From the NCBI GenBank assembly GCA_965235115.1, contig OZ249436.1:35342001-35406000 (forward strand): a stretch of DNA of 64,000 bases, in the 5' to 3' direction. Below are positions 773 through 38,950 of this stretch, piece by piece; the first letter of the stretch is position 1; every line of letters starts with the position of its first letter. A program made the position numbers and the translations under genes. Source of the DNA: Laetmonice hystrix. Lineage: Eukaryota. The notes beneath the pieces were generated by a model. It saw only the letters and a list, made by a program, of their open reading frames with translations, ran no database searches and had not been told where the DNA came from.

Positions 773-2090
773 CTTGGGAATTTTAGAAGTTCTGTGATTC
801 TGCTAGACTGAAAATAAAAATATTTTGAACTAGAACATCTCTATTCTAAGGCCTACCTAACTTTCAGACTATCATGTGCCAAAATATTCATTGCCGGCAG
901 CAGCACAAGCTAAAGCTAGGTGTCGACTTGTCTTTAGACAGATTTCTATATTTGGGTTATTATAAACATTTTATTTTCTTAAAATTAATAAAAAAAAAAT
1001 TGTGATGCACCCTCTCCCAGACCAAATGTGTCCCATGGATGCAAACAGCCTCCAATTCAATGGGCTTACCAGCTAAAAGGTGCGACTTGCCGCATGGCAA
1101 CTCCTAATTTGACACCCTGGGGTACATTCTGACTGTATACCTGCGCGACTGGTGCAATCTTTTGAATCTAATACTTGCAGGTAACGCAGTGTTTTTTTGG
1201 CAGGAAGACGGTAACATTCTTGAACAGCTATTCTGCCAGAACGATCCCTTTACTTCTGGTGTGCGTGTGCACTTATTACAGTTGTGGACTTAGAAATGTT
1301 TCCTTCATTTTCCTGCCTGCAGGCGTTCAACACACACTATTGTGCCGGCATTACGGTCAGTCAGGTTGGGGGGGGGGGGGCACTCAGTCGTCGGGGGCTT
1401 TGCCATGGGCCTCAGTCGGGGGGGGGGGGGGTCAAGGGGGCTCAGTTGGGGCGGGGGGGCTTAGTGCCAATTTTGAGTTAACCCTCCTGATTTTGTCGTG
1501 ATGAGATCCTGGGGCCGGTTAAATATACTAATGGCAGTGTTCTCGCACTCTGATGTGACGACACAATGTTGACACCAGTGCTGAGATGAGCCCATCTCGC
1601 ACTCCCAGGGAAGTAGTCCTAATGACGACGCATATCACATGTAAACAAAAGCCTCATTGTGTGTCATCAAGTAGTGCCACACACAGATACTCTCACAAAA
1701 TCTGTATTTCTCACGATTTATTTTGCATATCATACAAAAATCTAATAAAGGCTATTAAAGTGACTTTGCAACGTCGAGAGTGAGGGACGGGTCAAGGAGT
1801 TTTGTTGTCACATCGTCTTTGCTGGCCTCCTACTGCAACAATGGCACTTGTCCAAAATTATTGTGACGTTACAGTATCTTAGTGATGACAATACAACTGT
1901 TCCGTCATAATAAGGTAGTCATTCTAATAGAAACCGCGCCCTGACGTAACAATGGCCCAGAAACCCTATGCGTAGTAATATATATTGCACAATGCTTAAC
2001 ACAATGATTAGCTTAGACTAAGTTAGAAAGGGCTGTTTTTCTCTTGTAATACTGGTTTAAATTGGTAGAAAATGGATATCATGCGAGAAA

Positions 2091-2236
2091 ATGCATATGG
2101 CATTGCTCCTCGTGCGAGATTTGCCTATCTCAGCACTTGTCAGGCCAGTTCAGGCCTCGCCTAAAGGCTCGGCCTGAACTGGCCTGACGCGTGCTGAGAT
2201 AGGCCCATCTCGCACTCGGAGCGATGCCATATGCAT
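2091..2236. mobile_element. Palindromic (foldback) MITE-like repeat
   Basis: atgcatatggcattgctc...tcaggccagttcaggcc / ggcctgaactggcctgac...gagcgatgccatatgcat form a near-perfect hairpin around gcctaaaggct. A partial copy (gtgctgagat..cccatctcgcactc) lies at ~1578-1605. Confidence 0.75.
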
Positions 2237-2400
2237 ATGCGGTTGTAAAATGGTTGTAAAATGGCCGCCACTGGATAGACGGCAAGCCCGAGGGTGAGCG
2301 AGGGGGTCTCCCGAAAATGGTCGGATTATATTAGCCTACAATGATTATCTTGGATATATACCTTGCTTGAATACCCTGGATCCACTAGGAACGTTTTGTC

Positions 2401-4272
2401 ATGAGCAAAGCTTCACGAAGAAGCCTGAGATCGAACAATAATTTGTCTGACATCAATCTTTTCCAACTGGGCGACAATTGGAGTAGAGTACAGGCAGTTG
2501 CTACGGTCAACAAAACCATTGTTGCTACGCCCGTGACAACCCAAGCGAGTCGGCCCGCCGCAGGTATGTTTCCTACGCACGTGACAACCCAAGCGAGTCG
2601 GCCTGTCGGTATGTTTAATGCCAACGTACACCCGCAATGCATGAACTCTATATACGACACCAGTTTTCCCAGTCTTCACCCACTCTCAAATACAAGTACC
2701 ACAGTTACTACAGCTGTATCAACTCTCTCCTTGTCAACTCTCCCGAACCCTACCAGATCACAAATGCCAGACATTAGGGTGACAAGTCAACTTGGGGGTC
2801 AACACCTAAATCAGCATAACATAATCCCGCCGTCGCAGCCTGAAAGCCTCACAATGCTCCCCACTAGCCAATCCTCTTATCCACTGAGTCAGGCACTCCA
2901 AGTCAAACCACCTTTCACAACTAAGGTCGACCCTGTTTATTGCAAAGAGGATAGACTTGAAAACATGATGTTAAACATGTCAAGTGTTCTCTGCCAGAGA
3001 CTTGACCAACTACAACAAACAAACACCCTAGCAATTGCAACAGCAAATCAAAATATATCTCAACTCCAACAATTTGTAAGTGGGATAAAGTCTGATGTCG
3101 ATGGTGTGCAAACCCTTAGCTTGAACAACAAACAAGAGATTGAGGATCTTAAGACCTCTATCACCAAAATAGAAAACCAAGTATTGTCAACTGAAAAACT
3201 CGCATTAGAAGCATCTAGAGCATATAACGACCTAACTTCCAACCAACTGCGTCAACCTGTAAGCTCCCACACTCCATCTCAGGATGTTGCCCATAACACT
3301 GACAGGAACCTCAGGCTGATCATCCGTGGGATACCTGAAGAGGAGAACGAGGATCTAGACAAGGAGATCTCTGATCTCTTCAATTGTCTAAAACTACCAT
3401 ATCACCACACTGAAACTGATGGTTTTCGACGTCTAGGTACACAGCCAACCGATGAGAAACTAGCAGAGATCAAATCACGAACCCCTCCAGGAGAAATACA
3501 ATATGGCAGACCAATAATGCTATCACTAGCTGCACTGCGACAAAAGATCATCATTTTTTCTCAACAACACCGCTTGAAGGGTCATCCCAAATATGGAAAT
3601 GTTAGAATCTTAGAGGACTTTAATGAAGCAGACATGATGAAATATCGAGAAGCCCGTCAAATTTGCGCGGCTGCTCGAAAGTGTACGCCCAATGTAAAAC
3701 TCCGTGGAACTGCAGTTCAAATTGACGGAAAAATCATCGAGGCAAAAGACTTTACCTATGGTCTGCCCTACCACATCACGCCAGAGTCAGCAGCCACCGT
3801 ACCAACTCCAGATGGCACTGCATTCCAAGGGCACGCCAGTCCCCTCAGTAACCTCTACAGTTGTGACCTTGAGAGCGATGGTGAAAAGGGGACCTCAGTC
3901 GAACATCTATACGTCCTAAGAATGGCACACTTGTGTAATGCCGAACCCTCGCTGATACAACAGATCAGAGTTGCAGAAAACCCCTACATCATCAAAAGAC
4001 TTGGTAAAAAAATCACTAAAACTGATGAATGGACCAAAAAGTCAACCGAGGTCCTACGTGACTACGTCCAATTAAAATTCCTGAAACACTCATTCCTCAT
4101 GGATAAACTCCAATCCTATGAAGGTGATTATTTCTATGAGGCGACTAAAGAAGAACCATTTGGTTGTGGGTTCCTCCTCCAAGATGCAGCACACATAACC
4201 ATTGACAAGATTAGCATGGGAAATGAAATGGGGAACATCCTGAAGGAGATCAGAGACAAATACAGACGTTGA
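2401..4272 (+). CDS. LINE ORF1p: S/T/P/Q-rich N-terminus, coiled coil, L1-ORF1-like RRM/CTD region, C-terminal NADAR (YbiA-like) domain
   Basis: 623 aa. Heptad-rich segment (~2950-3240), then RNLRLIIRGIPEEENEDL...RRLG...RPIML (ORF1 RRM-like). From ~3814: F.G..SPLSNLY, SVEH, NP...KRLGKKI, W, KF, FYEAT...FGCG, GNEMGNILKEIR, the NADAR motifs in order. Confidence 0.85.
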   Translation: MSKASRRSLRSNNNLSDINLFQLGDNWSRVQAVATVNKTIVATPVTTQASRPAAGMFPTHVTTQASRPVGMFNANVHPQCMNSIYDTSFPSLHPLSNTSTTVTTAVSTLSLSTLPNPTRSQMPDIRVTSQLGGQHLNQHNIIPPSQPESLTMLPTSQSSYPLSQALQVKPPFTTKVDPVYCKEDRLENMMLNMSSVLCQRLDQLQQTNTLAIATANQNISQLQQFVSGIKSDVDGVQTLSLNNKQEIEDLKTSITKIENQVLSTEKLALEASRAYNDLTSNQLRQPVSSHTPSQDVAHNTDRNLRLIIRGIPEEENEDLDKEISDLFNCLKLPYHHTETDGFRRLGTQPTDEKLAEIKSRTPPGEIQYGRPIMLSLAALRQKIIIFSQQHRLKGHPKYGNVRILEDFNEADMMKYREARQICAAARKCTPNVKLRGTAVQIDGKIIEAKDFTYGLPYHITPESAATVPTPDGTAFQGHASPLSNLYSCDLESDGEKGTSVEHLYVLRMAHLCNAEPSLIQQIRVAENPYIIKRLGKKITKTDEWTKKSTEVLRDYVQLKFLKHSFLMDKLQSYEGDYFYEATKEEPFGCGFLLQDAAHITIDKISMGNEMGNILKEIRDKYRR

Positions 4273-4703
4273 GAAATCTAATAGAATTTATCCTCGAAAC
4301 TATTGACTGTTTTAAAAGCTTCGTTTGGCCTACTGCTACTGATTATGATACCTGACCTATTTATATGATTTCACATATGAAAATTACCTGGTCTGACATG
4401 CTGGTATTGACTCTGAAGGTGAAGACATATGGGGACCTGCGGTGACGAAATCCGCCCAGGCCCTCTGCCGATTTGTTGCCGTATTGTCGAATCACTATCA
4501 TGGATTTCCTATTGCTGGGTCTTTAATTGTGTAAACTATGGAGTGATACCATTCCTGGGTTAGTCGATCGGTGGGTTCCCCTCACCCACACCTCTGGTTT
4601 ATTTTTAGGGCTGTACCACGCTCAAAGCGCTGCCCCTAGCACATTCTGCATTTAGAGGCACCGCCTAGATAGCACACCCTCATCTTTATTAAAATCTACC
4701 CAT

Positions 4704-7568
4704 ATGCAGTCACAAGTAAACTGCTCAAATATTACCTCCAAGGGGTTCCTCGCGATACACCTCAATTGTCAGAGCCTATGCAACAAGCCTGATTTGATCA
4801 AGCTGCACGTACTTAAAGATAAACCTGATATCTTTTGCATGAGCGAGACGTGGTTAAAACCTCTTTACCCAAACAATATGTTTCTCATAAACAATTATAA
4901 TCTTGAACGATTAGACAGAGCATGGCTTCCTCAAAGACAACACCACCCGAAAAGAGGTGGTGGCGTAGGTATCTATGTAAAGTCAGAACTAAATTACTCT
5001 ACTCAAGAATTCCAACATTTATGTCTTAGTTCCGCGGATATTGAAATATTATGGATTTGCATCCACCAACCCAATCAAAGAAAACTTGTTATTGGTACTC
5101 TATATCGACCACCCGAAGGATCAGTTTCATCTTTCTGTGACACCTTAAAAGATATGGTTGATCAAGTAACGCTCAACAGCAATGCTGAGGTGTTTCTTAT
5201 AGGTGATTACAACATAGACTACCTTAAGTTAAATCATCCCTATCGCAAAGAACTGAAATCGCTGGAGGCATTAACAGGCATGAATCAATTAATATCTGAC
5301 ATCACCCGCCATTCAAGTACGACGACATGTATTGATCTGATTCTATCAAATTCGGAAAACGTGGCTAAGTCAGGGGTATTACACTGGAATATTAGTGATC
5401 ACGAACCCATCTTCTTTGTTAGGAAAAAGGCCAGAGTCACTTATACAAGAGTTAACACTAAAGGGCGATCTTACCTAAATTATGATAGGAATCAATTTAT
5501 TAGGGACGTGAAAACCAGCAACTGGAGGGAATTTGATATGGAAACTAACCCTAATAAATCTTGGGAAATAATGAAAGATATATTTGTAAGGGCAATTGAT
5601 AAACAATGTCCGTTGAAACAAATACGTGTAAAAAATAGAAACGATCCCTGGATTACGAAGGAAATAATTGAATTAATTCATGAAAAGGATGAAGCAAGGA
5701 AGAGAGCAAAAAAATCGAATAAGGGCGAAGATTGGACTAAGGCCAAAGCACTAAAACACAAAGTTAACAATACTCTGAAAAATGCTAAACGCGATTTCAT
5801 CCTGAATTCACTGCAGGACAGGAATGACGTAAAAAAGTTTTGGGAGTCATTAAACTCAATATTACCCAAATCAGAGAGCCGGCAGGTAATAAATTTAGTT
5901 GATAATAACAACGAACAAATCCCCGCCGAGAAAAGCGCTGAGTGTATAAACAAGTATTTTGTAGAAATAGGTAATAAGTTAGCTGCGCAATTTGTTGATG
6001 AATGGGTTCCCAACTTTCCTCCAACAGATTTTAGCATGGAGGACTTCGGCACGGATGTAAAGACTGTGAAAGACCTATGCAGAACTATTGACGAAACCAA
6101 AGCCTCAGCCATTGGCAGTTTGTCCTCCCGTATTCTTAAGCATGCCTTCTTGGCCCTACCTGAAAAGTTAACCCACTGCTTCAACTTGTCTCTCACATCT
6201 GGGATCTTCCCAAACGATTGGAAGGTGGCAAAGGTGGTCCCCTTGTTCAAAGGTGGAACCAGAACTAGTGTTACCAACTATAGACCTATATCTCTACTCC
6301 CACTCCCGGGGAAACTGTTAGAAAAGGTTGTTCACGTAAGACTTCTCGACTATGTTGAAAGAAACAAGTTACTTAGTCCTGACCAAGGTGGCTTTCGGCC
6401 GGGTCACTCAACGATTGAAACCATTGGTGAACTAACCGACGACATAGCAGAGAACTCCAACTTATTAAAAGACACTCTTGTTACTTATATAGATTTCAAA
6501 AAGGCTTTTGATACTGTGGACCATGCAATACTACTAAGCAAACTCTCAAGAATTGGAATCAAAGGTAACACACTAAAATGGTTGCGCTCCTACCTTGACA
6601 ATAGACAACAGTTCACCGTAGCCAACAACGTCACTTCTGAAATTCGACCGATTACCTGTGGGGTGCCTCAGGGTTCAATCCTTGGACCTTTCTTATTTCT
6701 TATTCACATAAATGACTTAGGTAATGACCTGCACTCTTCCAAACAGAAATTATATGCCGATGACACCGCCCTGCAAGTCGCTCACAGTAACCCTGATACA
6801 TTAGGTGCAAATATGCAAGCTGACTTGGATATCTTGAGTAGATGGTGCTCTCTAAATAGACTAACCATCAATACTGATAAAACTAAATGTATGTACTTCC
6901 CTGCAAAAAAGAAGGACCGAGACTTTACTCCCCCTCAAATTACCCTAAACAATATCCCACTTGAATACGTGAAGCAGTACAAATATCTTGGAGTGTATCT
7001 TGATACTAAACTAAACTTCCAAACCCACCTTAATCAAGTCTACAAATTAGCCTCACACAAGATCTTTTTGTTAAGCAAAATAAGGAATCTATTAACTGAA
7101 CATGCAGCCATAACTATATATCGTTCCAAAATACTACCATATTTCGATTATGGTGATGTACTATATCATAGTGCCTCGGTTAATAATGCTGATCGACTAC
7201 AAAAGTTACAAAACCGTGCACTCAGAGTATGCCTTAAAGTTGAACCTAGAACACCTGTCTTAAATATCCACCAACTTGCCGGATTACCGTTCTTAAAACA
7301 CAGAAGAACTATGCATATACGATGCCTAGCCTATAAGAGAGCACGAAATGATAAATATACTGTGACAAAAGCTAGAGTAACCAGAGGCGGAACAGCAACC
7401 CAACTTAACTACTGGCTAGCTAGAAATAACATGATTGCCAACTCCCTCCACAACACATGTGCGAAGGAGTGGAACTTCCTGGATCCAACCCTTAGAAATA
7501 GCCCAACACTCTCTAGATTTAAAGAAGCCCAAAAAAGATGGTTGAAATCAAATATCCCTATTACCTAA
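4704..7568 (+). CDS. LINE ORF2p: AP-like endonuclease plus reverse transcriptase
   Basis: 954 aa, uninterrupted. APE motifs HLNCQSL, CMSETWL, GGGVGIY, YRPP, GDYN, SDH. RT motifs NYRPISLL, QGGFRPG, DFKKAFD, GVPQGSILGP, YADD, YKYLG. Confidence 0.97.
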   Translation: MQSQVNCSNITSKGFLAIHLNCQSLCNKPDLIKLHVLKDKPDIFCMSETWLKPLYPNNMFLINNYNLERLDRAWLPQRQHHPKRGGGVGIYVKSELNYSTQEFQHLCLSSADIEILWICIHQPNQRKLVIGTLYRPPEGSVSSFCDTLKDMVDQVTLNSNAEVFLIGDYNIDYLKLNHPYRKELKSLEALTGMNQLISDITRHSSTTTCIDLILSNSENVAKSGVLHWNISDHEPIFFVRKKARVTYTRVNTKGRSYLNYDRNQFIRDVKTSNWREFDMETNPNKSWEIMKDIFVRAIDKQCPLKQIRVKNRNDPWITKEIIELIHEKDEARKRAKKSNKGEDWTKAKALKHKVNNTLKNAKRDFILNSLQDRNDVKKFWESLNSILPKSESRQVINLVDNNNEQIPAEKSAECINKYFVEIGNKLAAQFVDEWVPNFPPTDFSMEDFGTDVKTVKDLCRTIDETKASAIGSLSSRILKHAFLALPEKLTHCFNLSLTSGIFPNDWKVAKVVPLFKGGTRTSVTNYRPISLLPLPGKLLEKVVHVRLLDYVERNKLLSPDQGGFRPGHSTIETIGELTDDIAENSNLLKDTLVTYIDFKKAFDTVDHAILLSKLSRIGIKGNTLKWLRSYLDNRQQFTVANNVTSEIRPITCGVPQGSILGPFLFLIHINDLGNDLHSSKQKLYADDTALQVAHSNPDTLGANMQADLDILSRWCSLNRLTINTDKTKCMYFPAKKKDRDFTPPQITLNNIPLEYVKQYKYLGVYLDTKLNFQTHLNQVYKLASHKIFLLSKIRNLLTEHAAITIYRSKILPYFDYGDVLYHSASVNNADRLQKLQNRALRVCLKVEPRTPVLNIHQLAGLPFLKHRRTMHIRCLAYKRARNDKYTVTKARVTRGGTATQLNYWLARNNMIANSLHNTCAKEWNFLDPTLRNSPTLSRFKEAQKRWLKSNIPIT

Positions 7569-7681
7569 GGAGATGACTAAACCGTATTCCTAGGCCAAAT
7601 ATACGAATATAATGTATATACATGTATATGTGTATTTTTATGTGTGTATTTTTTTATATTTGTTAGCCTCAAAAGGTCACT

Positions 7682-8250
7682 TGCCAGGTCTGGTCCGTTT
7701 GGACATCCCCTGCGCATCGGTGCCCATACCCTGCACTGTCAACATTCCACTCGGTTCTCTACATACTGTATATTATATATGTATAGATTGTGTGAATATT
7801 TACGTGTGTACCTTGGATATTTGTTTGCCTCCCACAGTCACTTGTGCTTTTTATGATATCCGTGCCAGGTCTGGTCCGTTTGGACATCCCCTGTGCATCG
7901 GTGTCCATACTCTGCACTGTCAACATTCCACTCGGTTCTCTACATACGTTTCCCGTGGCTGTTGAAATTTGGTTCTGATACATTACGTTGTGTCTGATAC
8001 ACTACGTTGTGTCTCTATGAAAGTTTGCATGGTTATAATACTGAAACGCAATACCTGTACTTGACACATGTCATGTAAGAGTTTAAACTAGAATCACTGT
8101 ATGTATAGATAGTGTGAATATTTACGTGTGTACCTTGGATATTTGTTTGCCTCCCACAGTCACTTGTGCTTTTTATGATATCCGTGCCAGGTCTGGTCCG
8201 TTTGGACATCCCCTGCGCATCGGTGTCCATACTCTGCACTATCAACACTC
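7682..8250 (+). repeat. Internally repeated modules in the LINE 3' UTR
   Basis: Unit A (tgccaggtctggtccgtttggacatcccctg...tgcact) occurs 3 times (~7682, ~7863, ~8185). Unit B (tgtgaatatttacgtgtgtaccttgg...gatatccg) occurs twice (~7790, ~8113). Confidence 0.92.
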
Positions 8251-9280
8251 TAGCTCTCAGTTCTCTAGACTGGAAGAAAAGTTCTCTACTTGTGTCCTGT
8301 GGTTGTTGAAACTTGTTCTGATACTTACGTTTTCAGCAATTTTCTGAATCTTTTACTTAAATTCATATGGTTACTGGAACTCAATACCTATACTTTACAC
8401 CCTGTCTTGCAAGGGTTTAACAAAGTCTTATCTGTGTACGTCTATGCATTATGTAATATTGCCACTTGTGTTATGCCCTTACAGTAGTGTGTTAAAGTGA
8501 CCGTGTACCCAATGCCCCCTGGGGAACTGGAAGAACCCTCCCAAGGGAAGTTTTCCCAGGTTAAATAAAAGATTTAAAAAAAAAATATATATTCCCGAAA
8601 TACATCAGACATTCGGTCATGACCGACGCTCATCGACATTATTCGACATTTCTTGCAGTTACGTTGGTCATTTTGTCCGGCAAACACTCACTGCCTGTGT
8701 GTAGCGAAATCCTGAATGTCACTGGGTCTTGATTTTAAGACCAAAATCAATGACATTCTGAACTTCAGATAGTTGTAGGCTCAGCAGAGCTTTGCCATAG
8801 GTTTTCTGTTTGTGACAGCTACCGTCATGATAGTGAAAATATGTAAATAGTAACTGGTTAAAGAAATTGTCATTTATGTGATGGTTGATTGTGATGTCTG
8901 ATGTGGATCAAAAATGTCTGACGTTCAGCTGCTCATCGTCAGACAAAATGTCTTGACGTCTCTCAAAACTTTTCGAGAACACTGTAATGGTCGATAAATA
9001 ATGACGTCGATATTTTAATGTAGACATCAATGCGTTGCTAAGTCATTGTTGCCAAGAAGCTTTCTATTTTATGTTAATTATCAACTTCTTTATTATCGAC
9101 CTTTAGTGAAACCGACCCCTGGGCTGTTAAACTTTTCAACCTCATGTCTGGAACCTGGGTATGTCCCGCAGGCCGCTATTTTTTTTTTTTTGGGGGGGGG
9201 GGGGCCTTAAGCCCTCGACTCCAGAGATCGGCAGGGCTCTCAACGCCGGGGAGCAAAGTCAAAGATGTCGGATGTCGGTG

Positions 9281-11309: not shown

Positions 11310-14300
11310 ATGCTGTCAGCCAAGATGACTCATCTTGTGCATCAAGGAATTTCATCTTATAGGAATATTCTCTCTAGGCTTTGCGGATCTTTTCCCCAAT
11401 TAGGTTTGTTTGTCACATTTAAGTTTACTGTAAATATGTTTAAAACAGTTCTCACTAAAATTTATTAAAACAGTATCTTACATGGATAAGTTGTTTACAT
11501 GAAATCCTACTCTGTGAAGATTGTTGTTCTCCTAGCTGTTGATATCAAATGTAAGCATAGAGCTTGACCGTAGTTTTGCTATGCATGAAAGTTGTCAAAT
11601 GAAAGTACTTTACTGAAATGAACCAATGATGTAGGGTTATCGTGGTAAATCATAGCAATGTCATTCAGCTTTAATTCTGACTGCTACTCTTAAAATTAAG
11701 AGCCTAATAAAAAGATGGGCGGGGCATATAGATGCTTGACTTTATCTACATACACACGGTATTAAAGATAGATCAGCAACAATTTCAAATTTGTGATGCA
11801 CTCTTTTAATTGGTTTGATTTTTCACCTTTATGTTTTATTGTACTTTCAAGGTATAGCAAGAGGTGCATCTTATCAGAGAAGACGTGAATCAAGCAAAGA
11901 TTCCAAGAAGCACCATGAACAGATTAATGAAGCTGAAGAAGTAGAGGATTTTTTCAATCAGTTGGGTCCATCATATGTGGAAGATTTTGTTTCGTGAGTA
12001 TGCAGTAGGAGCAACTTCAGAACAACTTCATGCAAACATCTTAGAGTGTTTTTCATTCTATTAAAATAATTTGGATGTAGTTATCAGATAAAGGGAAGTT
12101 CATTTTAATCTTTTTTCCATATTAGTACCAAAAAAACCTTGGATAAATGGTAGTGTGTTCAAAATATTAGATTTAAAGGGCTAGTGATATACTAGTTTGT
12201 TACTGTAATAAGAAACTTAAAGTTATAGCAAAAATTCCTCATATACTTGCCTTTGAACCTCAGGGACACCATATTAAAAATTCAGGGTCGAAAAATAAGT
12301 AAAAATATGTTAAAAGAGGAATGGCAAAATATGTCTCCGTTGGCTTCCTTGCTAATTCCGCTGCCATGCTCTCTGATCTATAAATAGATTACCGCTTGTT
12401 CCCAGCCTGTGCTGGCTTGAAAAAATAGCGAACAGGCAGTAGGGTAACTTGAAAACCTAACATAACACGGGGGGGGGGGCAGTCCCATGAGAGGCTGTAC
12501 AATTAGCACACAGACAGTGAGGGGTCGAGGGGTTTGGCCTGGTGGTGCAGTGCATGCGCGTTGATAGGTGACTGCAGCCTGCAGGGCTGGCCCTGGGCCT
12601 GGCATGGAGCGCCCACTGAGGCTTTAGTCAAATCCATGCGGCACTTATGGTGGACGTACTGATCTCAGCAATTCCTAGCAACTCCTCATCACTATTGGTG
12701 GTTTTCTGTCTTGGTTTTAACAAATATGGCAGTAAGCTGGCAACACTTCTCTGGAATTCCTATTTGTTACCATCTGAGTCGCTCAATGACGCCATAGATC
12801 TTCGATTGTATGGAGGGATTAGTTCCTCAAAAACTGGAGAGCAGTCGTGCTGTGATTTGTCGCACGGTGACGTCAAATTAGCAGACACTACATATATGGC
12901 AGCATCCACATGCTGAGCAGGCTCTGGCACAAAAATGCTTACAAAATGTATCTTAAATATTTGAGCACCAATTGTGTTCAGTCTTTTCTATCTTGCTTAA
13001 AATTTCACGGCCTGTGTGCCTGGCCATGTACCCACTGGGGGAAGCCTTTTCTTTTAAAAAGGTATATGGCACACATAAATGCATTTTTGTTGAATGATGC
13101 ATTTGTTTGTTCAATTCAGGAAAGAAGTGAAAAGGCAGAAGACGCTCAAGTTCAAAATTATCCAAAAGAAATACTTCAGAGAAAAGCCCGAAGCAAACCT
13201 TCTTACTTGGGATGCAAAGGAACAAATTCGATACCTACATCAGGAATTTCCAGAAGAATGGACCATTGAACGTCTTGCAGAAAGTTTCCCAATCAGCATT
13301 GCTGGTGTTAGGAGATTACTAAAATCAATGTGGTACCCAATGACCTTGGCTGAAGTAGTGAAGCACGACACCCGTGTTCAGAAACAGTGGAAGCTGCTAA
13401 AATCAGAGAGTCATCAAGATGGGGGCCCAGTTCTAACACGCTACCAGAACCTTCTCCAGGGGGGCAAGTTAAAAAATGCAGCTGGTGTTGCATTCCTACC
13501 TGCCCCAGCCAGACGAGACCTACTTATGGATGGAAGCAGCCCAATGTCCCTTGCCGACAGGACAGAGCCTGGACCATTCGAAAAAATAGTAAAAGATTAC
13601 TGTGAGAAAAAGCAGCAAGAGAAGGACAGATATGAAAAACAGGCGGAATTAGTCGACGAGAAACTGGTGAAATTGAAGGAAGATAGTCTAAGGGTTCTCT
13701 GTGATGTCACTAAAAATGTCCAGGCTCGAAGACTGAATCCAGGCTTAGAAGATCCTATTGCTTCTCAACAAGTACCGGTAGGTCAGGCAAGATTGAAGGC
13801 CAATAAGGAGACGCATAAGCCAAGAAACCTCCATCAGAGTATGTTGGACGCTGTACCTTCCTCTCAGAGCCTCACCTTTGGGGAAGGCAGTGCCATCTTG
13901 GAGGGACTTGACGACATATCAGGATTCTCTGAGGCACCAGTCCCTGCAGGTCCAATGACACCCAGTGACGGTCACCAACCACCAAGTCCAAGGAAAGGAC
14001 TTAGGAGGAAGGCGTTGTCAGCTTCAATTTCCAGTGAAACCCTTCAGATGCATGGGACTGGCAAATTACTCCCAGAGTCCCATGATGACCCAGATATCTC
14101 CAGTGAAGACACCAGAGGTTTCGCTATTGTGGACAAAGGGGACGACTATGAATGTACCCTGCCTCAGACGACCACGCCGAGGATGCGGCGTCACCCAGAG
14201 GGGGAGGAATCCCGTATCTGGGAGGAGCTTCGTTACGACACCCCAGTTGATTACAGTGATGACCCTGAGGCATATCTCTACAGTGAGCAGAGGGGTTATC

Positions 14301-14437
14301 AGCATCCCCTAGGCAAGAAAGATAGAGAGCTAGATAAGGTGAAGATACCCCATCAACAAAAGGCTCAAGGTCGGCTTTATAAAAAGGGAAATTCCTTTTA
14401 TGATGAAGATGGTAACCTACTTTACAGAGTCCCATAA
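11310..14437 (+). CDS. NGRN: Neugrin (mitochondrial ribosome assembly factor); coding exons 11310-11403, 11852-11993, 13120-14437
   Basis: Neugrin motif LTWDAKEQIRYLHQEFPEEWTIERLAESF..S...VRRLLKS and conserved C-terminus FYDEDGNLLYRVP. N-terminus MLSAKMTHLVHQGISSYRNILSRL resembles a mitochondrial presequence. Splice phases are consistent. Confidence 0.88.
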
Positions 14438-17645: not shown

Positions 17646-20600
17646 TCATACTTGTAACTTCTCCAGTTTGTTCACCCATGAGGCTATTGCTGCATTGACA
17701 CGTAGAATGAATAAATACATTAAAAGTATGAGAAATGAGAGCAACAGCCAGGTTACACCTTCAAAGACGAAGCGAGGAGCAAAGATTTTCCAAACCATCA
17801 GGTGGCGGCGGTGTAGGGCTGCAGCAGCCATTGTTCCGATCAACTGAAAGGAAACAGGTGAAAACCTTCAGGGTACTCCAACAAGTTTGAGATGATAAAG
17901 TAATACTACAAAGGCCAAAGAAGCAACCAGTCTGAGTAGGCAGGAGTGTCATACATTTTTGAGTATTTATTCCATCTAGCAATACCAAAGATTATAGATA
18001 TCTCAAATAAAGTTAAATTTTAAATCATATTAAATACTGATATCGTATACTGCTCCGTGAATTGTTATGCAAAAAGCTTGAAAATGTAATAGTTCTTTAA
18101 TGGCTACTTTTACATGGAGCCTTTGCTTTTCAAAATTTGGCTAACAGGCAAAAATCTTCGCCACAATCCTTCATGATGCAGCACTATAACTATCATACTA
18201 CATGTATTTGAAGGGCTCTACATAGGGAACTTTTTATACCACTATACTACTGAATATTCTTCAGTCAACTTACCTTGATTGCATGATAGAGCATAAAGCC
18301 AACCATCAGCCTGAAAAGGCTGCTGCAAAGGAGTTGCTTGTTTTCATGCAATACATATTCTCCACGTTTTTGTCCAATGTTTTCAGTATCCTGTGAATAA
18401 TCACTACATTTACTGTAGACACACAGAATACTCTCTCTGACCATAGGCCAAAACAGCAGCAGGGGTAAACCTACCACTGCCAGTATGGGACCGGCAAATG
18501 TATTCAGTGTAATTAAGACAACTGGGATAATGTAATTCTCAAAGTCTCCATGAAAGCCGGTATATGCTGCTTCCCAGCGAATGGTAGTCACGGTGGTTTG
18601 GTGACCAGTTGAAAAGAAGAAGTGAGATCCAACAAGCCCCCATAAAACGATGCTGCACCATGGCACTCCAATACGGTCTGTTCAAGCAACAAAACATAAT
18701 TTGTTTTATAACTTTAAAGTTAATGATGGCAAGTTAATAAACATAATAGCAAGTTAAACAACAAATACAAGTATATATAGATGCTCTAAAAAGATATTAT
18801 CACAAAAAAGGTACAAATGGTTGAAAGTCATCCAACACACCTTGTTCTTGAACAGATATGTATGCTGCATGAATCTCCAGTACCAGGCCCATTAGTGCCA
18901 TCTGTATCATCATGGCAGGGGCCACCCCGTCTCCTAGCAACAGCGCCAATCCCACAGCCACCAGGGTTGTCACGACAATAACACTTGAGGAGAAGACAGT
19001 AGCTAAACCATACACAACTGGGACCTTGCTTTCATTGTCTTTTCCTGTACCACCTCCAGGTCGAAGATGACTCTTCCAGTGAAGTTTAAGATGATTATAG
19101 AATCGAGGTATTGGATTGTTGTCTCCACATTTTGGCAACAAAAGCTCGGGCTTTTTGGACTGGAAATAACTATAGATACAGAGTGGATTCACAGTCACTA
19201 TAAGTATAGAGAAACTAACAAGAGCTAAGACTATGCGGGGCAGGGAGACAACCTGCCAAGCTGGCAGAGTATCGAGAATCTTCTCCGGCAGTCCCAGCAG
19301 GGCCCAGTAGAGGCACATGCAGACTATGCTGGCTGGGACAGCATACAGTGTCACGAACACTGCTGGTGAGAATCCATTCAGGTTGCCATGGTGTCGCATC
19401 CATTTGTGAACAATTACTGGGATTGCCACCATACTGATAACGGAGAGAAAGTATCGTAGATTTTTATACCCTGCCAGATCATTAGTTAAGGTTGCCAGGG
19501 GTTGCAGGAAACTTGATAAGTCACAGGTCCACTGCTCTTCTCGACATGCCCTAAAAATATATACTACCCTGACACCAACATTGAGCAGAATCATACCAAC
19601 TAGAAGGATCCCTCTATGAGAGGTTAGGACTCTTCCGATATCAAATGCCACTTTCTTGCCGCTTTTGGATGAAGACCAAGAAGATGCTCTAACTTCAGTG
19701 GGATGACTTTTGGCAAGGTCTCGGCTGATCTGATAGAAAATTATACAGCATACTGATGGGATTAGAAAGGCAACAACAGAATCTTCAAACACCACGAAAC
19801 TGTTGGAGAACATTGCTGCAGCATACATCAGCATACACAGTGATGTGACATTACTGGACAGGAATGAACTATAATCATAAACAGGGTCTTCATTCTCATC
19901 TGTTTCTCCAACTGTGCTCCCTGAATCTCCTGATGTCAGCTTCTGGTTTTGTTGGAAAGATGTTGTAAGCACCCTGGCAACAATGTGGGTTGATATACCG
20001 ATGGCGGGCATCCCAAGGCTGATAGAAGCGATCAGTCCAGTGGTTCCTAACCCTACCATGTAGAGAAAGGCAAAGAACAGGACTACCCAGCCTGAACCTA
20101 CCACTGCAGCATAGACCCTGACACAACATGCATCCCAGTTGGAGTCTGCTACCACAACCACATACGCCATCACGATTACCGACACCAAGGTGGCCAGAAA
20201 ACCAAGCAGCATACATGGATGGTCAAACTTAGCCCAGATGCTCTGGCACATACGCCTGGCATCGGTGAGAAATCGCAAGTACTCGTCTCTAAGTCTTTCC
20301 AGGTTTTCCTCAAGATGCCGCTCATCACCCTCTATTTGCAACAAGGTGAGCATTTCTTGTAACTGTGTCTCACAACGACGGAAGAGGAAGTCCAGCTCTG
20401 CAAGCTCTATGTATGGGAATTCATCCGATATCGCACTGTAAGCTTGTAGGTACTCATGCACCTGATGAGCATTCAGACGGAGTGCCTTTACTGCATGATA
20501 TGTCTATCAAAAAGAAAAAAAGGGGAATCTTAGGTGTTAATGTCTGGCATAAACATGCTAAAATTACATATAAACTGTAAAGTGTCTAGACTTCCATTTG

Positions 20601-23356
20601 CCTGTTCCCAACTACCATGCTCAAATATCTCCCTGGTACAGTGATAGAAGCTGTACTCATTGACTGGTTGTTGAGCTGGCTTTGACTTGAACAGCCAGTG
20701 AGCTTCATGGGTTCATCGCCCAAAGAATTTCATTGGCTGTTAAATGCCAGGTAAACGATTTTGTCAACAAGTTACAACCAACCATAAGACATTTGCTTCA
20801 TATTCTACAACAGGCAACTGGAATGTAGAATTTTTTTTTTAAATTCTTCTATGGGTATACCCCGGTACATTTATTGATTATGTAAGGCCTTATCTAACGG
20901 AACAGCCCATGTCTGCATTTTGAATTCATTGAAATGAGAGATACTCAGTGATTACTTTAACACTCCGTGATATAGAATTATTATGTCATATGGTGACACT
21001 AACCTGCTTCACTTTGTTGTTGTCACTCTTCCACCATGGACAGTAAGTAAACAGGTCAGTGATGAGACTACCCAGATTAGCCATTGGGATGGGCAGCCCC
21101 AGAAGCAGCGACAATGTTGGCACCAAATCTACTTGAGCCACAGCCTTATGACGACCCTGGCAAAAGATTAAAGAAGCTACAATTTGATGTTTGTGACACT
21201 TTGGATATCAATAACCAATTTTGATGATTCCAATTTAAAACAACATTTCAAGAAGGCACAGGAATGTCAACAGAGAGAAAAATATAAAAAATTGCAAAAA
21301 ACTCTTGGGCAAATTTTGACACCTTGCTGCCCTTTGGCACATCATATTTACTGGAAAATAATCTAGATTGAAAAACTTGTGCTAAGGTGATTGTAATGGC
21401 TGCCGCAGGCTATACGATTCTAGTTGTGAGCTCCCTCAGACTATACTTTCAGGTTCCTAGTGATCGCATAGGGCATGCACACCAAGTTTACCTTTTGTGG
21501 TGGCATGGCAGTGATTCGAGATGGACTGTGTACAAACAGGGCTGCCTCAAGCTCATCTGGACTATCTCCACCGTGATCCCCTGACCGTGTCATTCCATGG
21601 TCTCCCATTACTATCAACACCGTATCCTGCTTTAACTCTTTCACAACAGATCTGCATAAAAGAAGAAAAAAGTGTAAAATGCATCATCAACATTGGATCA
21701 TTAAACAGTATTGCAATGTGCATTGTGAATATTGATATATAACAGAAAGGTTATTCATAACCATTAAATACATGTACTATAGTCAGAGGGTCAGAGCTTC
21801 TGGCAAGTCAATGCGTCTGGTGGTTAGTCAGAGTGTCTGGTGGGGTTGGTCAGATTGTTCGGGCCTGTTGGCTAGCCTGTCAGAAGTGACCTCGGCAATC
21901 ACGATTGAATATGCTGCCTGATTTTTTGAACATGGACCATAATTTAGCTCAAGTATGTTAGTTTGAGGTTCTTATATCATCAGTGAGGCTGCGAATAAGT
22001 TGAAATGGATGACACTGGGTGACAAGCCACAGGACTAGTGCACTAGTCTCAAGAAAATTTCTGCTAGTCCCAACACATTTATGAATGTATATGATGTTAA
22101 TTGAATTTATTGATGACTCTGCATGTAGTAGGCCTTTATAAAGAGCTGAAAAGTACCATCATGTCATGGATTTCTCTTATAAGTTGCATTCATTTATTCA
22201 AAGTACAGTTCCGGGTACAATTTTCATCAAAACGGCTCTAAAAGGTTAGTCGCCCCACTGGTGAGTACCTATTGGAAGTCTCGACGTCGGGAGCACTCGC
22301 CTAGGCGAGCAGGCGAGTGGATCTCCTGACTCCTGCAACAGCCATGCTCAGCTGGCGTTGACTGACATCAGCCTGTGCCCAGGTGAGCCCTTGCTCAGTC
22401 ACTTGGCCACGGGGACTGTGGAAGAGGACTGGGGAAGCCGTGATGGACACTTGACTTATACCCCAGAGGCAATGACTCATGTCGCAGATGCATTGAGCAT
22501 AGGACACTTTAACCAACCCCCATAATTTACTCTAATAAAGTTACATAATTTTATCAAGTCATATCTATCCATATACATCCAAAACAAAATACCTCAGAAC
22601 CTTGTCCATCTGGGTAAGTTTTTCAGCCATGGCTGGGTGATTAGGACCATATCTGTGGCCGCAATGATCAACGCCGAGAAAATGGGCTATGAGCACATCC
22701 CAATCTTTACGTTTGAGTTCAGGCACTAAATGAGCTATTACACCATTATCTACAGTATGAAGATCTTTAACATTTAAGGAGGGATAGGCAAATGTTTTTT
22801 TAAAGCGATCTGGAAATAGACCGGTCCATGTATCATCCCCCATAAATGTTATGGAATTGTTTGCTATGATCAGCTGATCAATTATGTTATCTTCGCTTAT
22901 TTCAGAACTAGCAAAATTTGAGCCCGCATCAACAAATGTTGGCAGACTACCCGTAGTAAGTCCCTTCAGTCTTTGTAGGGTGGTGGTTGGAGGATCGGCA
23001 AAGAACTGGTATAATCGACTCTGATCTGGTTTCTTCCTCAGCAGTTCCCGAATTATTTTCAGTTTGTTCTGATATGGCAGTTCATTTGCTGTCCTAACTG
23101 ATGAATTAAACACTGCAAAATCGTATCGTAATGCATCGATTATAATGATGACAGCCCGCTTAAACCGACGGTGCATCCAACATCCGTCGTGGTCGCCATG
23201 CTTGTCACTTTTCATAGTGAAGTTGACATCACAACGCGCTATTTCTTCGACTACAAGTCGTTTTAGAAGGAACCCTTTCGTGAAGAGGAGCAGTCCTCCT
23301 GCGGTTAACACTGCAAACCACAGCAGAATGATAAAATATCGCTTTTCTGGCTTCAT
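17646..23356 (-). CDS. PIGO: GPI ethanolamine phosphate transferase 3; exons 23356-22593, 21651-21492, 21156-21004, 20503-18841, 18677-18274, 17843-17646
   Basis: FTKGFLL, IIDALRYDF, ADPPTTTLQRLKGLTTGSLPTF, HFLGVDHCGH, GDHGMT..GDHGGDS, QVDLVPTLSLLLGLPIP, FFSTGHQ, RRHLMVWKIFAPRFVFE. Splice phases checked. Confidence 0.95.
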
Positions 23357-34905: not shown

Positions 34906-36340
34906 TCAATTAAAACATGTGCAGCTGCACAGCGCTGTGCAGCTGAGGCCATAGCGGTAACATTTGCACCTCCCATGGCATTCACTCTTGCATCCACACT
35001 TTGTTAGTTGTTGGCAACAGATGGCAAGAGGAGGAAGATCAGTCCAGTGGATCTCCCAAGTTCCAGATTTGTTGACCCATCCCCAGTCAGCAGGACTCGG
35101 TGTTGCTGGTCGACAAACGGCCCACTGACCCCATATAAATCCTGCTTGATAAGCTGACCGTTTGGTGTGTTGGAGAAGAGCATCTTGTGTCGGTGGTATG
35201 GCGTCATAGGACCTTTGTTTTCTGGCGAACAGGTCCAGGCGTGCCTCATTTACACATGTAGCTTTGCTGGATCTGTCATACAATGTTATGACAAACCTCT
35301 CAAGTATCTGAAGGTCATCTTCTGTGACAGACGGTGGGTACTGACTTAAGCGATGGAAGACACTTGTTGCTTCTACACTAACATCCCATGTCAGCCACGC
35401 CGACTTCTTACCCTTTCCACGGAAAGCAGACGTCACATCGCAGCCGGTGAAGGCATGGAAGAACAAAAGTCCATGTACCTTTTCCTTGCCAATGGCAGCA
35501 TTGATATCATGAATTGCAATCCATCTTTGACTGGTACCCTGACTGAACAACATCCATATTTTGTTCAGTCCAAACTGCTGAAGAGAGGAAAAAGCTGCAG
35601 TCGCTAAGACGACAACATCTGTGTCATTTGCTTTGATCACAATCGATGTATGTCCCTCCAGTGCAGCATGTTTGGCATGGACAAACATGCGCGTGTCCGC
35701 TTCTTCATGGTCACATGGAGCCAAGTCTTGTTTGTTTATGACCTGATTACTCATGACATCATTTCCTTTGGTAACAATGATGAGATGTTGAGTTTGTATC
35801 TCAGTGATCTTCTTTGCCAAGAAGTTGAACAGTTCTGTCTTGTTGTCATCGTTCCGTAGAAAGCCTTGCCAGTTTCTTGGTGTTTTGCTTGTTCCAGTGA
35901 CCCTTCTCCTGGTTCCATGTCCCTCTTTGCTCTTGTTGCAGACTTCAAGCTATTTGTCAGGTACAAATCAAATATCACATCTGTTCTCTTGTATTTGGCC
36001 GAAAATGCTTCGATCCTACGGATGATGTCATCTTTTGCATAATCATCAAATGACTTTGGTGTGTTCGGTGACATGGAGTTCACCAATGCTGTACCATCAA
36101 TGATTATAACATCGGCATCTGGCTTGCAAGCTGATGTAGTCACTTTCGATTCCAGAATGTCAACCAGTTGTGATTTCTGACAGTAATGGAGCTTGCCAGT
36201 GTCGCTCAAAACTGGTGGAAAAGCCTGATTCTCATGCTTGAAGAACTCATTAAGGTTGCACTCCCTGCTTTGACATGTCATGAGATAAACAGCTGTGAGA
36301 AAAGATGATAGTCACTCTTCAGTTTCTGCTGTTGGCGATC
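34906..36340 (-). pseudogene. C-terminal part of the Academ protein (XPG/FEN-like nuclease + Cys-rich zinc finger), frameshifted and 5'-truncated
   Basis: CDHEEADTRMFVHA, DTDVVVL, FFHAFTGCDVTSAFRGKGKKSAW, PPTQDALLQHTKRSAYQ, CGCKSECHGRCKC...CTALCSC. Upstream frame has FFKHENQAFPPVLS, IIDG, DVIFDLY. Frameshifts near ~35915 and ~36278. Confidence 0.85.
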
Positions 36341-36344
36341 AATT

Positions 36345-38950
36345 ATGTAGATGGTTTTGGAAAGTTTGACGAGGTTTGTGACAGTGTGGACGTGGAAAGT
36401 GAGTATTGGTTTTTTCCTCATCCCTTCTATCGAGCTAGATGGCTGTACGTGCATCAGGTGATGCTTTCGAGGTTGGTTTCAACCATAACGAGGGAGGATC
36501 TCCCACTGACGGAGCCGGCAGGCTCAGTGCCCTTGGCCATGTTGTCGGCGGTCAGGCCACTCAAGGTGACGTAGAGCGTGACCGTGACAGCAATTCACGG
36601 CTGATAGAGCTGTTGGCCATGGAGGCTAAGAGGAAGGTAGATTTCGATGAGGAGGAGCCGGAGCCTTCTGAGGCCCGGTTCAAGTCAGCCAGCGGGAGGA
36701 GGGCGCTTCGGCGTCGAGTCTGGTCGACAGTGATTATAAAATGTTCGACCCCCTGGTGGAGGACGAAGTTGGGGCTACACTGACGGCTGGTCAGAGTGCT
36801 TTTGTTGAGAAATATTTCTCAACGTATATTGCTAATGACGTTGTCATGGACAAAGTGTTGGCAGATTGCCCCAAGCCGGGTTTGAAGTTACTGGAACCAC
36901 CCAAGTTGGATCCAGCATTGGTTTCGCTGCTGAATGCAGAGTGCGTCAGGCCAATGAAATTTGCTGACAAGGCTTATGCGAGGGTGCAAACCAAGGCTGC
37001 TGATGTGTTGGGGCCGCTTGGGGCACGTGGCGGAGATGCTGAGGCTGGCGGAGAAGTCAGTCATGCTGGTGGGACAGATTTTTGTCTATGCCACACACCA
37101 GCGTAGGCACGGGGTGCTGTCGAGATGGCTCAAGGACCCCGCTTCAGTGTCTGAGACATTGAAGGAAGGTGAAACGGAGCTTCTGGCAGGTCTGCAGAAG
37201 GGTTGGCTTTTTGGAGAGGAGTTCAAGAAGTTGCTGCTCCTAAAAGCTAAAGGCTCTAAAGAGCTGAAAGAGATCAAACAAGAGTTGGGCAGGCCAGAGG
37301 TTAGACCTAGGACCCAGCAGCCCTTTCGGCAAAATGCCCCGAGGGGCGGAAGAGGCATGGCAAGGGGCTTTGTGGCCAGAATACGGGGCAGAGGTGCCGC
37401 AACTAGCGCCAGAGGTGGCAGAGGAGCTGCTTACTCCAGGGGCTACAGCAGACCTGGAGGAGCCAAGACCAGGTGGGTCCGGGCGGTCTTCGCCACTAGA
37501 GCTAAGAACGGGGTTAATTACAGAAAACCCGGGTGTAAAGGTGATACATTGGTTGAAGGAAAAGGAGGGGGGGCGATTGGTTTGGTAAGGTTTCCCCCTT
37601 CGGACCAGGTACACAAGGAGGTGTTGGGTCTGGGGCTCAGGAGGAGCGAAGAAGGAATTGTGAGGGTGGGTCAGAGGGTCGCCCTCTTCCAGGACAACTG
37701 GAGGAAGATCACCTTGGATCGCCAGGTGTTAGCAGTAGTTGCGAGAATGGAAGTGGATTTCTTGGAGGAGCCAGTCCAATGCCAATGGGCAGAGCCGAAT
37801 TGGCCGAGCTTCTCAAGGATGGAACAGGAGACCCTCCAGGGGGAAGGGTGAAAGGGGCTATCAGAAGGGTAGCACCAGTGAGGGGCCAGTTTTTGAGTCA
37901 TGTCTTTCTCAGGCCAAAGAAGGATGGCAGCTTCAGACCAGTGTTCAATTTGAAGAAGCTAAATGCGTTTGTCAGGTACGAACACTTCAAGATGGAAGGC
38001 ATGTCGATGCTGGGGGATTTGCTGTGGAAGAACGATTGGATGATAAAGATAGACCTCAAAGACGCGTACTATTGTGTTCCAATCGCCGAGAGGCACAAAA
38101 AGTTCTTCCGCTTCAAATGGAAAGGGGAGCTGTACGAGTATCAGGTCCTCCCCTTTGGCCTGGCTTCGGCTCCAAGGTCTTCCACGAAACTCCTGAGGCC
38201 AGTTGTAGGCCTACTGAGGCGAATGGGGCTGAGATTGCTAATCTTTCTGGACGACATGTTTGTTTGCAATCAGGAGGAAACAGCACTCAGGCAGGACAGG
38301 ACACAGTAATTTGGGTGCTGCAGTCCTTGGGGTTTGTTCTGAACTGGGAAAAATCCCAGTTGACCCCGACAAAGAATCTGGAGTTCTTGGGTCTGGGAGT
38401 CGACTCAATAAAGATGTGGCTGACGCTTCCAGTAGAGAAATTGGAAGCGATCAAGCAACACTGTGGCCGGTTGTTGAGCGACAAGGCAGCCACAGCAAGA
38501 GAAATTTCTCAGCTAGTTAGGAAAATGACGAGCACGATAAAGGCGATTCTCCCAGCGCTGCTTCACTACCGCCATCTGCAGATGGAGAAAACAAAAGCGC
38601 TCCTGCAGGGAGGCCAGAGCTACGAGACACAGATCTCGCTGTCATAGGAGGCTCTGGAGGAGCTGTCATGGTGGAGAGAGTCACTGGATTCAGTGAACGG
38701 CAGGCGGCTGTTGGTGCTGAGCCCCGACCTGGTAATAACCACGGACGCATCGGGGTTAGGTTGGGGAGCGGTTTGTCAGGGAGTTACAACCCAAGGAGTT
38801 TGGAGCAAAGAGGAGATGACCAAACACATAAACCTGCTCGAATTGAGAGCAGCACGGTTTGCGATCATGGCCTTTGCAAAAAATCGGAAAGATATTCATG
38901 TCCACTTGAGATCCGACAACAGAACAACGGTGGCCTGGTCTCGCGTCACG
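36345..38950 (+). mobile_element. DIRS-type (tyrosine-recombinase) retrotransposon fragment: degenerate gag-like ORF, RT and start of RNase H; no recombinase gene seen
   Basis: FLSHVFLRPKKDGSFRPVFNLKKLN, HFKME, KIDLKDAYY, LPFGLASAP, IFLDD, LGFVLNWEKS, FLG; RNase H ITTDASGLGWG, HINLLEL, SDN. Several frameshifts and stops; GC-richer than the flanks; cut off at the Academ right arm. Confidence 0.9.

Follow-up and report, generated by a model that had tools for sequence, protein, structure and literature searches.

The first open reading frame (ORF1) of a LINE retrotransposon in Laetmonice hystrix ends in a true NADAR domain, fused in a single frame to an RNA-binding protein of the L1 type. The element lies in the 64,000-nucleotide stretch of DNA that was analysed (the window). 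In the active site of the domain the pair of glutamates at the ribose is near-invariant, and the residues that bind the ADP half of the substrate are eroded.

The identity of the domain follows from both profiles and structure. The Pfam NADAR model (PF08719) matches residues 479-620 of ORF1 with an E-value of 2.5e-13 and 51 bits, against a cut-off of 35.1. TIGR02464 (riboflavin-intermediate N-glycosidase) reaches an E-value of 2.8e-13, its 50.4-55 bits lying below the equivalog cut-off of 73.7 bits. With phmmer, ORF1 is linked to a Phytophthora NADAR of known structure (PDB 8BAU) at an E-value of 7.6e-6, and the profile of the family matches the same structure at 2.2e-30. An AlphaFold2 model of residues 299-623, based on an alignment of 104 sequences, is of high confidence (pLDDT 96.1, pTM 0.89) and aligns to 8BAU over 162 residues (Z 19.4, rmsd 2.4; Foldseek E-value 8.2e-9) and to E. 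coli YbiA (2B3W) with a Z of 14.7. By these alignments it has the YbiA fold (five core helices with two small sheets), and viral NADARs match it as well. A preliminary description, made from the letters of the sequence, had read a NADAR domain at the end of a LINE ORF1 protein, and this reading is confirmed: all motifs that it quoted are found in ORF1, and profile and structure agree with them. The fold begins slightly upstream of the start given there (about residue 460, nucleotide 3778).

There is a close likeness to the YbiA-family NADARs (Phytophthora nicotianae 8BAU and E. coli 2B3W), which share with the window domain the fold and the equivalents of E43, W89, E125, K75 and G78. These proteins are standalone, whereas the NADAR in the window is attached to an RNA-binding protein. 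The mark of the subfamily, a catalytic Glu on the last strand (E125; PMC11543638), is present as E580. The DarT1-NADAR toxin-antitoxin systems (BC4488 family, 8BAT) belong to the same superfamily and are a model for the erasure of guanine ADP-ribose, but here the structural match is weaker (Z 7.6). In the BC4488 family the residue equivalent to E125 is an Asp and a DarT1 is linked, whereas the window has Glu580 and, as neighbour, an APE-RT ORF2 with no linked toxin; the domain is therefore not placed among the DarT1-associated antitoxins. Coordinates of all features are given in Table 1.

Table 1. Features of the NADAR-bearing LINE in the window, with the basis on which each was assigned
Feature	Position	Strand	Basis
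LINE, CR1-group-like, full-length	2246..8585	+	Identity to L021; 5'-truncated copies with common 3' end
Candidate internal promoter element, motif AAAATGGCC	2258..2266	+	Recurrence near 5' end across loci
ORF1, 623 aa: Ser/Thr/Pro-rich N-terminus, coiled coil, RRM, CTD, NADAR	2401..4272	+	Single open frame
Coiled coil, about aa 186-280 (limits approximate)	2956..3240	+	Family profile against 2YKO and many coiled coils
RRM, L1-type (type II), aa 301-406	3301..3618	+	Model residues 3-108 against 2W7A, Z 9.5
CTD (L1-type) and linker, aa 407-459	3619..3777	+	Model residues 1-161 against 2YKP, Z 9.2
NADAR/YbiA domain, aa 460-623	3778..4272	+	PF08719 at aa 479-620; 8BAU Z 19.4
Glu501, E43 equivalent (distal ribose), kept	3901..3903	+	E in 155/159 rows
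Met508 at K50 position, Lys not kept	3922..3924	+	K 71, R 31, M 31 of 159 rows
Trp544, W89 equivalent, kept	4030..4032	+	W in 153/159 rows
Glu580, catalytic E125 equivalent, kept	4138..4140	+	E in 156/159 rows
ORF2, 954 aa: APE endonuclease aa 21-233, RT aa 523-765	4704..7568	+	ORF and domain matches
3' UTR, internal duplications of about 320 bp, A-tail	7569..8585	+	Sequence; copy alignment

The part of ORF1 that precedes the NADAR domain can be classified too. The family profile matches the L1 ORF1p structure 2YKO at an E-value of 7.6e-13, and the first half of the model aligns with human L1 ORF1p structures at Z 9.0-9.5; the Pfam model Transposase_22, run on the single ORF1 sequence, gave no score. 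From the fold and profile matches it follows that ORF1 is a type II protein (coiled coil, RRM and CTD) with a terminal NADAR. The coiled coil and RRM-like region named in the preliminary description are thus borne out, both by the 2YKO profile match and by the alignments of the model to 2W7A and 2YKP. Type II ORF1 proteins (L1-type, transposase-22; 2YKO; PMC4120745) have the identical three domains in identical order, and the window protein differs from them by the extra domain at its C-terminus. According to PMC4120745, this type of ORF1 occurs in the CR1 and L2 lineages.

The LINE is complete and both of its ORFs are intact. A second full copy on another contig (L021), likewise with both frames open, is 99.57% identical over 6341 columns. 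A DNA search of the genome, in which 40 of the 70 candidates were scored, yielded these two full copies and several 5'-truncated ones that are 99-100% identical and have a common 3' end. Such a pattern is that of recent target-primed insertion, and the window LINE is young and recently active. In the two copies inspected no clear target-site duplication was seen. Near the 5' end, AA[ACG]ATGGC[CG] was found 125-194 nt upstream of the first ORF1 ATG at 7 of the 11 loci checked; the window's own version of this motif, AAAATGGCC, we take to resemble a YY1 site. The 3' UTR holds an AATAAA at 8564-8569. In the 431-nt spacer between the two ORFs there is no esterase remnant.

LINEs of the Tx1/L1 group have an ORF2 of about 1250 aa with a CCHC finger at its C-terminus, and those of the CR1 group (CR1, L2, Crack, Daphne, Kiri) an ORF2 of about 950 aa with APE and RT, without RNase H or CCHC. 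The ORF2 in the window agrees with the latter, having APE and RT in 954 aa, and departs from the former both in length and in showing no CCHC pattern at its C-terminus. Among 120 listed relatives of this ORF2 none has a zf-RVT. Because the finger is lacking in this ORF2 and zf-RVT in the relatives, we assign the element to the CR1 group and not to Tx1; judged from these ORF2 features it appears CR1-group-like, the RT trees containing only unnamed copies. Its RT part is 24% identical to that of a Tx1-like element in the same genome (L048). An SGNH esterase ORF, which is a CR1/L2 trait (PMC4120745), is present in relatives of the window LINE.

The fusion is widespread in the genome, which was searched as a 627-Mb assembly. 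Profile searches were needed, since a word search with a single sequence gave only 2 relatives. With the window domain 561 candidates were obtained and with the Pfam NADAR model 741, neither figure being a copy number. In each case 150 were scored, at 27-100% identity for the window domain and all above 107 bits for the Pfam model, and many of the Pfam matches sit in open frames of 420-480 aa. Flanks were examined for 28 of the 150 places scored with the window domain. At the first 20, which stand near the top of the list, a downstream RT on the same strand was present in 16 and none was found within the examined stretch in the remaining 4. Seven more divergent places consist of five with CR1-like ORF2s, the Tx1-like L048 (ORF2 of 1239 aa with a weak zf-RVT match) and a Gypsy element (L043). 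Another place, L041, is a Gypsy Pol in the order protease, NADAR, RT, RNase H, integrase. The fusion that the preliminary description saw in one copy hence recurs in other CR1-like LINEs and in one Tx1-like LINE. Beyond this genome, an RRM-CTD-NADAR profile finds 1094 clusters at E <= 1e-30, which may include NADAR-only proteins; in 128 of the best 160 proteins the match is continuous from RRM through NADAR. The related clusters in the Atlas are eukaryotic and the commonest phylum is Annelida (the phylum being known for just 3 members of each cluster). One of the proteins, from Haliotis rufescens (P0017), carries 7 NADARs.

A branch with 98% SH-aLRT support divides a quick tree of 37 domains (164 columns, few outgroups, no true root). 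On one side of it are the NADARs of the CR1 group and three domains of protein P0065. On the other side are the Tx1-like L048, two Gypsy domains, and the phage, plasmid and Haliotis domains. As the NADAR of the Gypsy Pol L041 lies between protease and RT and on a separate branch, the data suggest a separate capture by Gypsy, and with it repeated capture of NADAR by elements that have an RNA intermediate. L048 shares the CTD and linker with the CR1-group ORF1, yet its NADAR falls outside the CR1-group branch of this quick tree. Three relatives (L026-L028) are 52-53% identical to the window in NADAR against 37% in RT; swapping of ORF1 and ORF2 was considered for them, and the trees are too poorly resolved to show recombination.

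Selection on the domain was analysed at codon level. Between the window and an older copy (L022), 84 NADAR codons contain 8 synonymous and 7 non-synonymous differences (dN/dS 0.22, Fisher p 0.005), and five within-family pairs pooled give a p of 7e-5 for purifying selection. Two pairs run contrary, in that purifying selection is not evident for L029 against L034 (dN/dS 0.82) and for L037 against L036 (0 synonymous, 2 non-synonymous). Between families the synonymous sites are saturated (pS 0.76-0.91) and pN of NADAR is 0.26-0.40, which is lower than that of RRM-CTD in 11 of 12 pairs, several of the RRM-CTD stretches being short. P0284, a full-length relative found in a different assembly, likewise has Met at the K50 position; it is 79% identical to the window in NADAR and in CTD, 74% in the RRM, 61% in the coiled coil and 49% in the N-terminus. 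Overall, the codon comparisons indicate that the NADAR domain is under purifying selection. One might argue that it is a neutral passenger, captured once and now decaying, given that the window copy scores 51 bits whereas the best 150 of the 741 genome matches all score far higher. This explanation is largely refuted by the selection data; the continuous RRM-CTD-NADAR match and the residues that stay invariant across families only 30-50% identical speak against it as well, and we regard it as highly improbable.

The active site was compared residue by residue, using the phmmer alignment to 8BAU with a two-residue offset, which agrees with the structural alignment. Counts refer to 159 rows (the window, 12 loci and 146 database domains, including repeats from two multi-NADAR proteins) that had been selected for their likeness to a profile built from the very families under study; another 22 proteins, in which the domain is incomplete, were left out. 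In the Phytophthora NADAR, E43 and E125 contact the distal ribose, and the ADP half is contacted by K50, R79, W89, R93, D130, W133 and Y84, where K50 touches the pyrophosphate and adenine (PMC11543638). Both glutamates are kept in the window. The contacts R79, W89, R93, D130 and W133 have become K, W, S, E and F, that is one identical, three conservative and one lost; Y84 is replaced by Thr. The changes from Lys to Met and from D..W to E..F, which the preliminary description had raised as caveats, are correct in the alignment to 8BAU. A K or R occurs at position 508 in 102 of the 159 rows, and the window copy has neither. Among the 17 CR1-group rows of this genome E501, W544 and E580 are invariant, and position 508 is K in 7, M in 6, C in 2, R in 1 and L in 1. 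The nearest relatives of the window (L024 and L029) carry Lys inside an otherwise mostly Met branch, so this position toggles. L044, L047 and the Tx1-like L048 are further relatives of the Lys type. Arg507 is unlikely to stand in for the Lys: the Phytophthora NADAR has an Arg there in addition to its Lys, and among the 31 Met-type rows an Arg occurs there in just 9. In the E. coli C7 NADAR, loss of the K50 or E125 equivalent abolishes activity (K95A kills the enzyme), and a Lys-to-Arg change at the K50 equivalent is tolerated in vitro (PMC11543638). The ADP contacts are changed in the window, whereas all 10 NADARs from phages and plasmids that were compared, chosen as matches of L048, keep K50, R79 and D130. 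Both Gypsy domains (L041, L043) lack the E125 Glu and have His and Tyr instead.

NADARs strip guanine marks from RNA and DNA (PMC11833690; PMC11543638). Their substrates are marks on guanine-N2, and for some families also on cytidine, that are made by writers of the ScARP, pierisin and DarT1 type (PMC11543638; PMC12945103); all families tested hydrolyse guanine-ADP-ribose, and a sponge NADAR is active (PMC12945103). In this genome, models of writers (Scabin-like, DarT and ART; PF22596, PF14487, PF01129) gave 0 matches, and the controls were equally silent. A further writer, CARP-1, comes from clams. It is listed among the guanine-N2 writers in a table of PMC12945103. The preliminary description had suggested an eraser or reader that may counter PARP or ART marking by the host of the element's RNA, its cDNA or the nick at the insertion site. 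As an eraser, the domain would act on PARP marks at the ends of RNA and cDNA or at the nick. PARP genes are present in the host (14 exon matches over the cut-off among 29 candidates), and PARPs mark nucleic-acid ends (table in PMC12945103). However, the NADARs tested are inactive on ADP-ribose at 5'- and 3'-phosphate ends of both RNA and DNA (PMC11833690) and on guanine-N1 marks made by PARP15 (bioRxiv 10.64898/2026.03.31.715305). Because of this poor fit to the known specificity we rate the PARP version as very unlikely.

The reading that we favour, tentatively and with slightly less than even confidence, is that the family encodes an RNA-tethered glycosidase for base-linked ADP-ribose, weakened or shifted in the window family. 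By analogy with L1 ORF1p, the protein presumably trimerises and coats its own RNA. With a trimer, the RNA would bear three NADAR sites, which would later come close to single-stranded cDNA; since the protein would coat the RNA, the site would be held there and close to the nascent cDNA. It could then free the nucleic acid of the element from ADP-ribose attached to bases (of the guanine-N2 or cytosine type) or from a closely related ribosyl adduct. Removal would keep translation and reverse transcription unblocked and would counter an ADP-ribosyltransferase of the host or of microbes. The kept acids suggest chemistry at the ribosyl-nitrogen bond. The lost ADP contacts suggest one of two things: tethering through RRM and CTD, which may make contacts to the ADP half dispensable, takes their place, or the substrate is now a different one. 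With Met for K50, the window family is probably weaker or shifted in specificity. The fold, the near-invariant E501, W544 and E580, the purifying selection and the known activity of NADARs on guanine marks speak for this reading. The Met508 and the changed ADP contacts count against it, as do the two pairs in which purifying selection is not evident and the missing Glu of the Gypsy domains.

Two alternatives take the same residues differently. The domain may be non-catalytic: it could serve as a reader that recognises nucleic acid carrying ADP-ribose or another modification, or it could prolong the RRM-CTD as a rigid part for RNA binding or structure. The essential Lys is lost, further ADP contacts are eroded, position 508 varies among K, R, M, L and C, and the pTM of the RRM-CTD-NADAR model would suggest a packed unit. 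However, in a reader one would expect the ADP contacts to persist and the catalytic acid to be gone, and the opposite is found; we consider a non-catalytic role rather unlikely. Alternatively, the domain may be catalytic on another N-glycosidic substrate. Candidates are damaged nucleotides (sanitising as by YbiA), ribosyl or phosphoribosyl adducts, and the RNA of the element during its processing. In accordance with this, the ribose-site residues are kept and those of the ADP site lost, E. coli YbiA cleaves intermediates of the riboflavin pathway, and orphan NADARs may have targets in the cell other than guanine-ADP-ribose (PMC11543638). RNA processing has already been suggested as the role of a retrotransposon NADAR (PMC12477816). 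Nonetheless, the activity of all tested families on guanine-ADP-ribose (PMC12945103) and the fact that K or R is still the commonest state at the K50 position weigh against it, and such a substrate seems unlikely to us.

A pairing of NADAR with ORF1 has been noted once in print. According to PMC12477816, several families of Tx1 LINEs in Crassostrea gigas carry a YbiA-family NADAR in ORF1, and Ectocarpus Gypsy elements (lineage IV) carry one in Pol. The novelty assumed in the preliminary description thus does not extend to NADAR in a LINE ORF1 as such; new are the CR1-group context with its type II ORF1, the scale, and the residue pattern with its remodelled ADP pocket. The oyster elements are Tx1, whereas the window element is CR1-group-like with a shorter ORF2; L048 is the Tx1-like parallel to them in this genome. 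For Ectocarpus the domain is placed in Pol, and in the Gypsy element found here it stands between protease and RT. In its accessible passages that paper does not go into the architecture of ORF1, the active-site residues, selection or the scale of the phenomenon. The term NADAR has 0 occurrences in the accessible text of PMC4120745, which covers 448 Jockey-superfamily elements, and likewise 0 in that of PMC13343379, where ORF1 domains of the CR1 group are named. In literature outside subscription journals, Repbase and Dfam, no report of NADAR, YbiA or DUF1768 in retroelements was found other than PMC12477816. RNA viruses of animals embed NADARs and macrodomains in their polyproteins (PMC9503650). 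This resembles the window LINE in that a parasite with an RNA intermediate carries an ADP-ribose-processing domain; the viral domain, whose role is itself a proposal, sits in a polyprotein and that of the window in ORF1 of a non-LTR retrotransposon. Retrotransposon terms do not occur in the accessible part of that paper.

NADARs are listed across many invertebrate phyla (PMC11125620) and the role of animal NADARs is still open (PMC12945103, PMC11125620). Moreover, in the NADAR literature surveyed no endogenous pathway of guanine-N2 or cytidine ADP-ribosylation acting on retroelements is described. It is conceivable, if doubtful, that a defence of marine invertebrates against retrotransposons ADP-ribosylates bases of element RNA or cDNA, and that LINEs (CR1-group and Tx1) and Gypsy elements repeatedly captured NADAR erasers in response. 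The CR1-group version would be tethered to RNA with a remodelled ADP pocket, and the whole would be a eukaryotic counterpart of DarT-NADAR.

The accessory domains known from LINE ORF1 proteins form a short list, which is extended here by a module of the enzyme type. The finding also means that many 'host' NADAR matches in invertebrate genomes are transposon-borne. The domains are small and can be assayed on existing modified oligos, their natural Lys, Arg and Met variants offering a direct handle. One genome has hundreds of NADAR candidates; the domain is under selection, and the copies sampled belong to retrotransposons of three kinds. This indicates a pressure that is both strong and specific. 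The fusion is real and common, and it hints at an undescribed host defence.

In two Gypsy-type Pol sequences (loci L041 and L043, same genome) the NADAR domain is placed between protease and RT, and His or Tyr occupies the position of E125 (Phytophthora numbering; Glu580 in the window element). The segment between protease and NADAR in L041, which by eye resembles a dUTPase, has no Pfam match. In a Tx1-like LINE (L048), ORF1 ends in CTD, linker and NADAR just as it does in the CR1-like families; the L048 NADAR has a near-canonical active site and scores 136 bits.

Between the family of loci L026-L028 and the window element, the NADAR domains are 52-53% identical whereas the RT is only 37% identical. 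ORF1 may have been exchanged between lineages, an event that the trees do not resolve. Many NADAR-LINEs carry a separate SGNH/GDSL esterase ORF of 225-258 aa, with GDS..., G.N and DG.H motifs, between ORF1 and ORF2, resulting in a three-ORF layout. Esterase sequence was found in 10 of the 28 NADAR loci examined; the window LINE is without it.

The motif AA(A/C)ATGGC(C/G), which resembles the YY1 site at the human L1 start, is common to the window (2258-2266) and the 5' ends of six other NADAR loci (L027, L031, L035-L037 and L040), 125-194 nt upstream of ORF1. An imperfect, MITE-like palindrome of 146 bp (86%; window 2091-2236) lies immediately upstream of the window LINE. The 3' UTR contains, within 7682-8420, internal duplications of about 320 bp and 85 bp, seen in both full copies of this LINE.

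Elsewhere in the window, the RT match of the broken ORFs, which are DIRS/Ngaro-like by appearance, covers aa 46-172 of ORF 37779-38306. The two minus-strand ORFs show no Pfam match; they look similar to an Academ-type DNA transposon protein. The transferase-like host gene is presumably PIGO.

Coordinates of features in the window and in other NADAR-bearing loci of the same genome
Feature	Location	Strand	Match
Gypsy-type Pol with NADAR	L041:3515-8494		
Gypsy-type Pol with NADAR	L043:2-1075		
Tx1-like LINE	L048:3-662 and 1201-4917		
SGNH/GDSL esterase ORF	L028:3593-4285		
SGNH/GDSL esterase ORF	L029:3719-4393		
SGNH/GDSL esterase ORF	L030:4706-5395		
SGNH/GDSL esterase ORF	L035:3425-4198		
SGNH/GDSL esterase ORF	L045:990-1670		
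Overlapping broken ORFs with RT match	window 36439-39003	+	PF00078
Two ORFs, cysteine-rich tail at end	window 34906-36281	-	
Host gene, Neugrin-family exon	window 13094-14437	+	
Host gene, GPI ethanolamine-phosphate transferase-like, exons	window 18800-23356	-	phosphodiesterase

Outside this genome, two database proteins contain several NADAR domains: P0017 of Haliotis rufescens (4240 aa, seven domains) and P0065 (2914 aa, three domains). Because five P0017 repeats have Met at the K50 position (Met508 in the window element) and the P0065 domains cluster with the NADARs of CR1-group LINEs, these multi-NADAR proteins may be element-derived.
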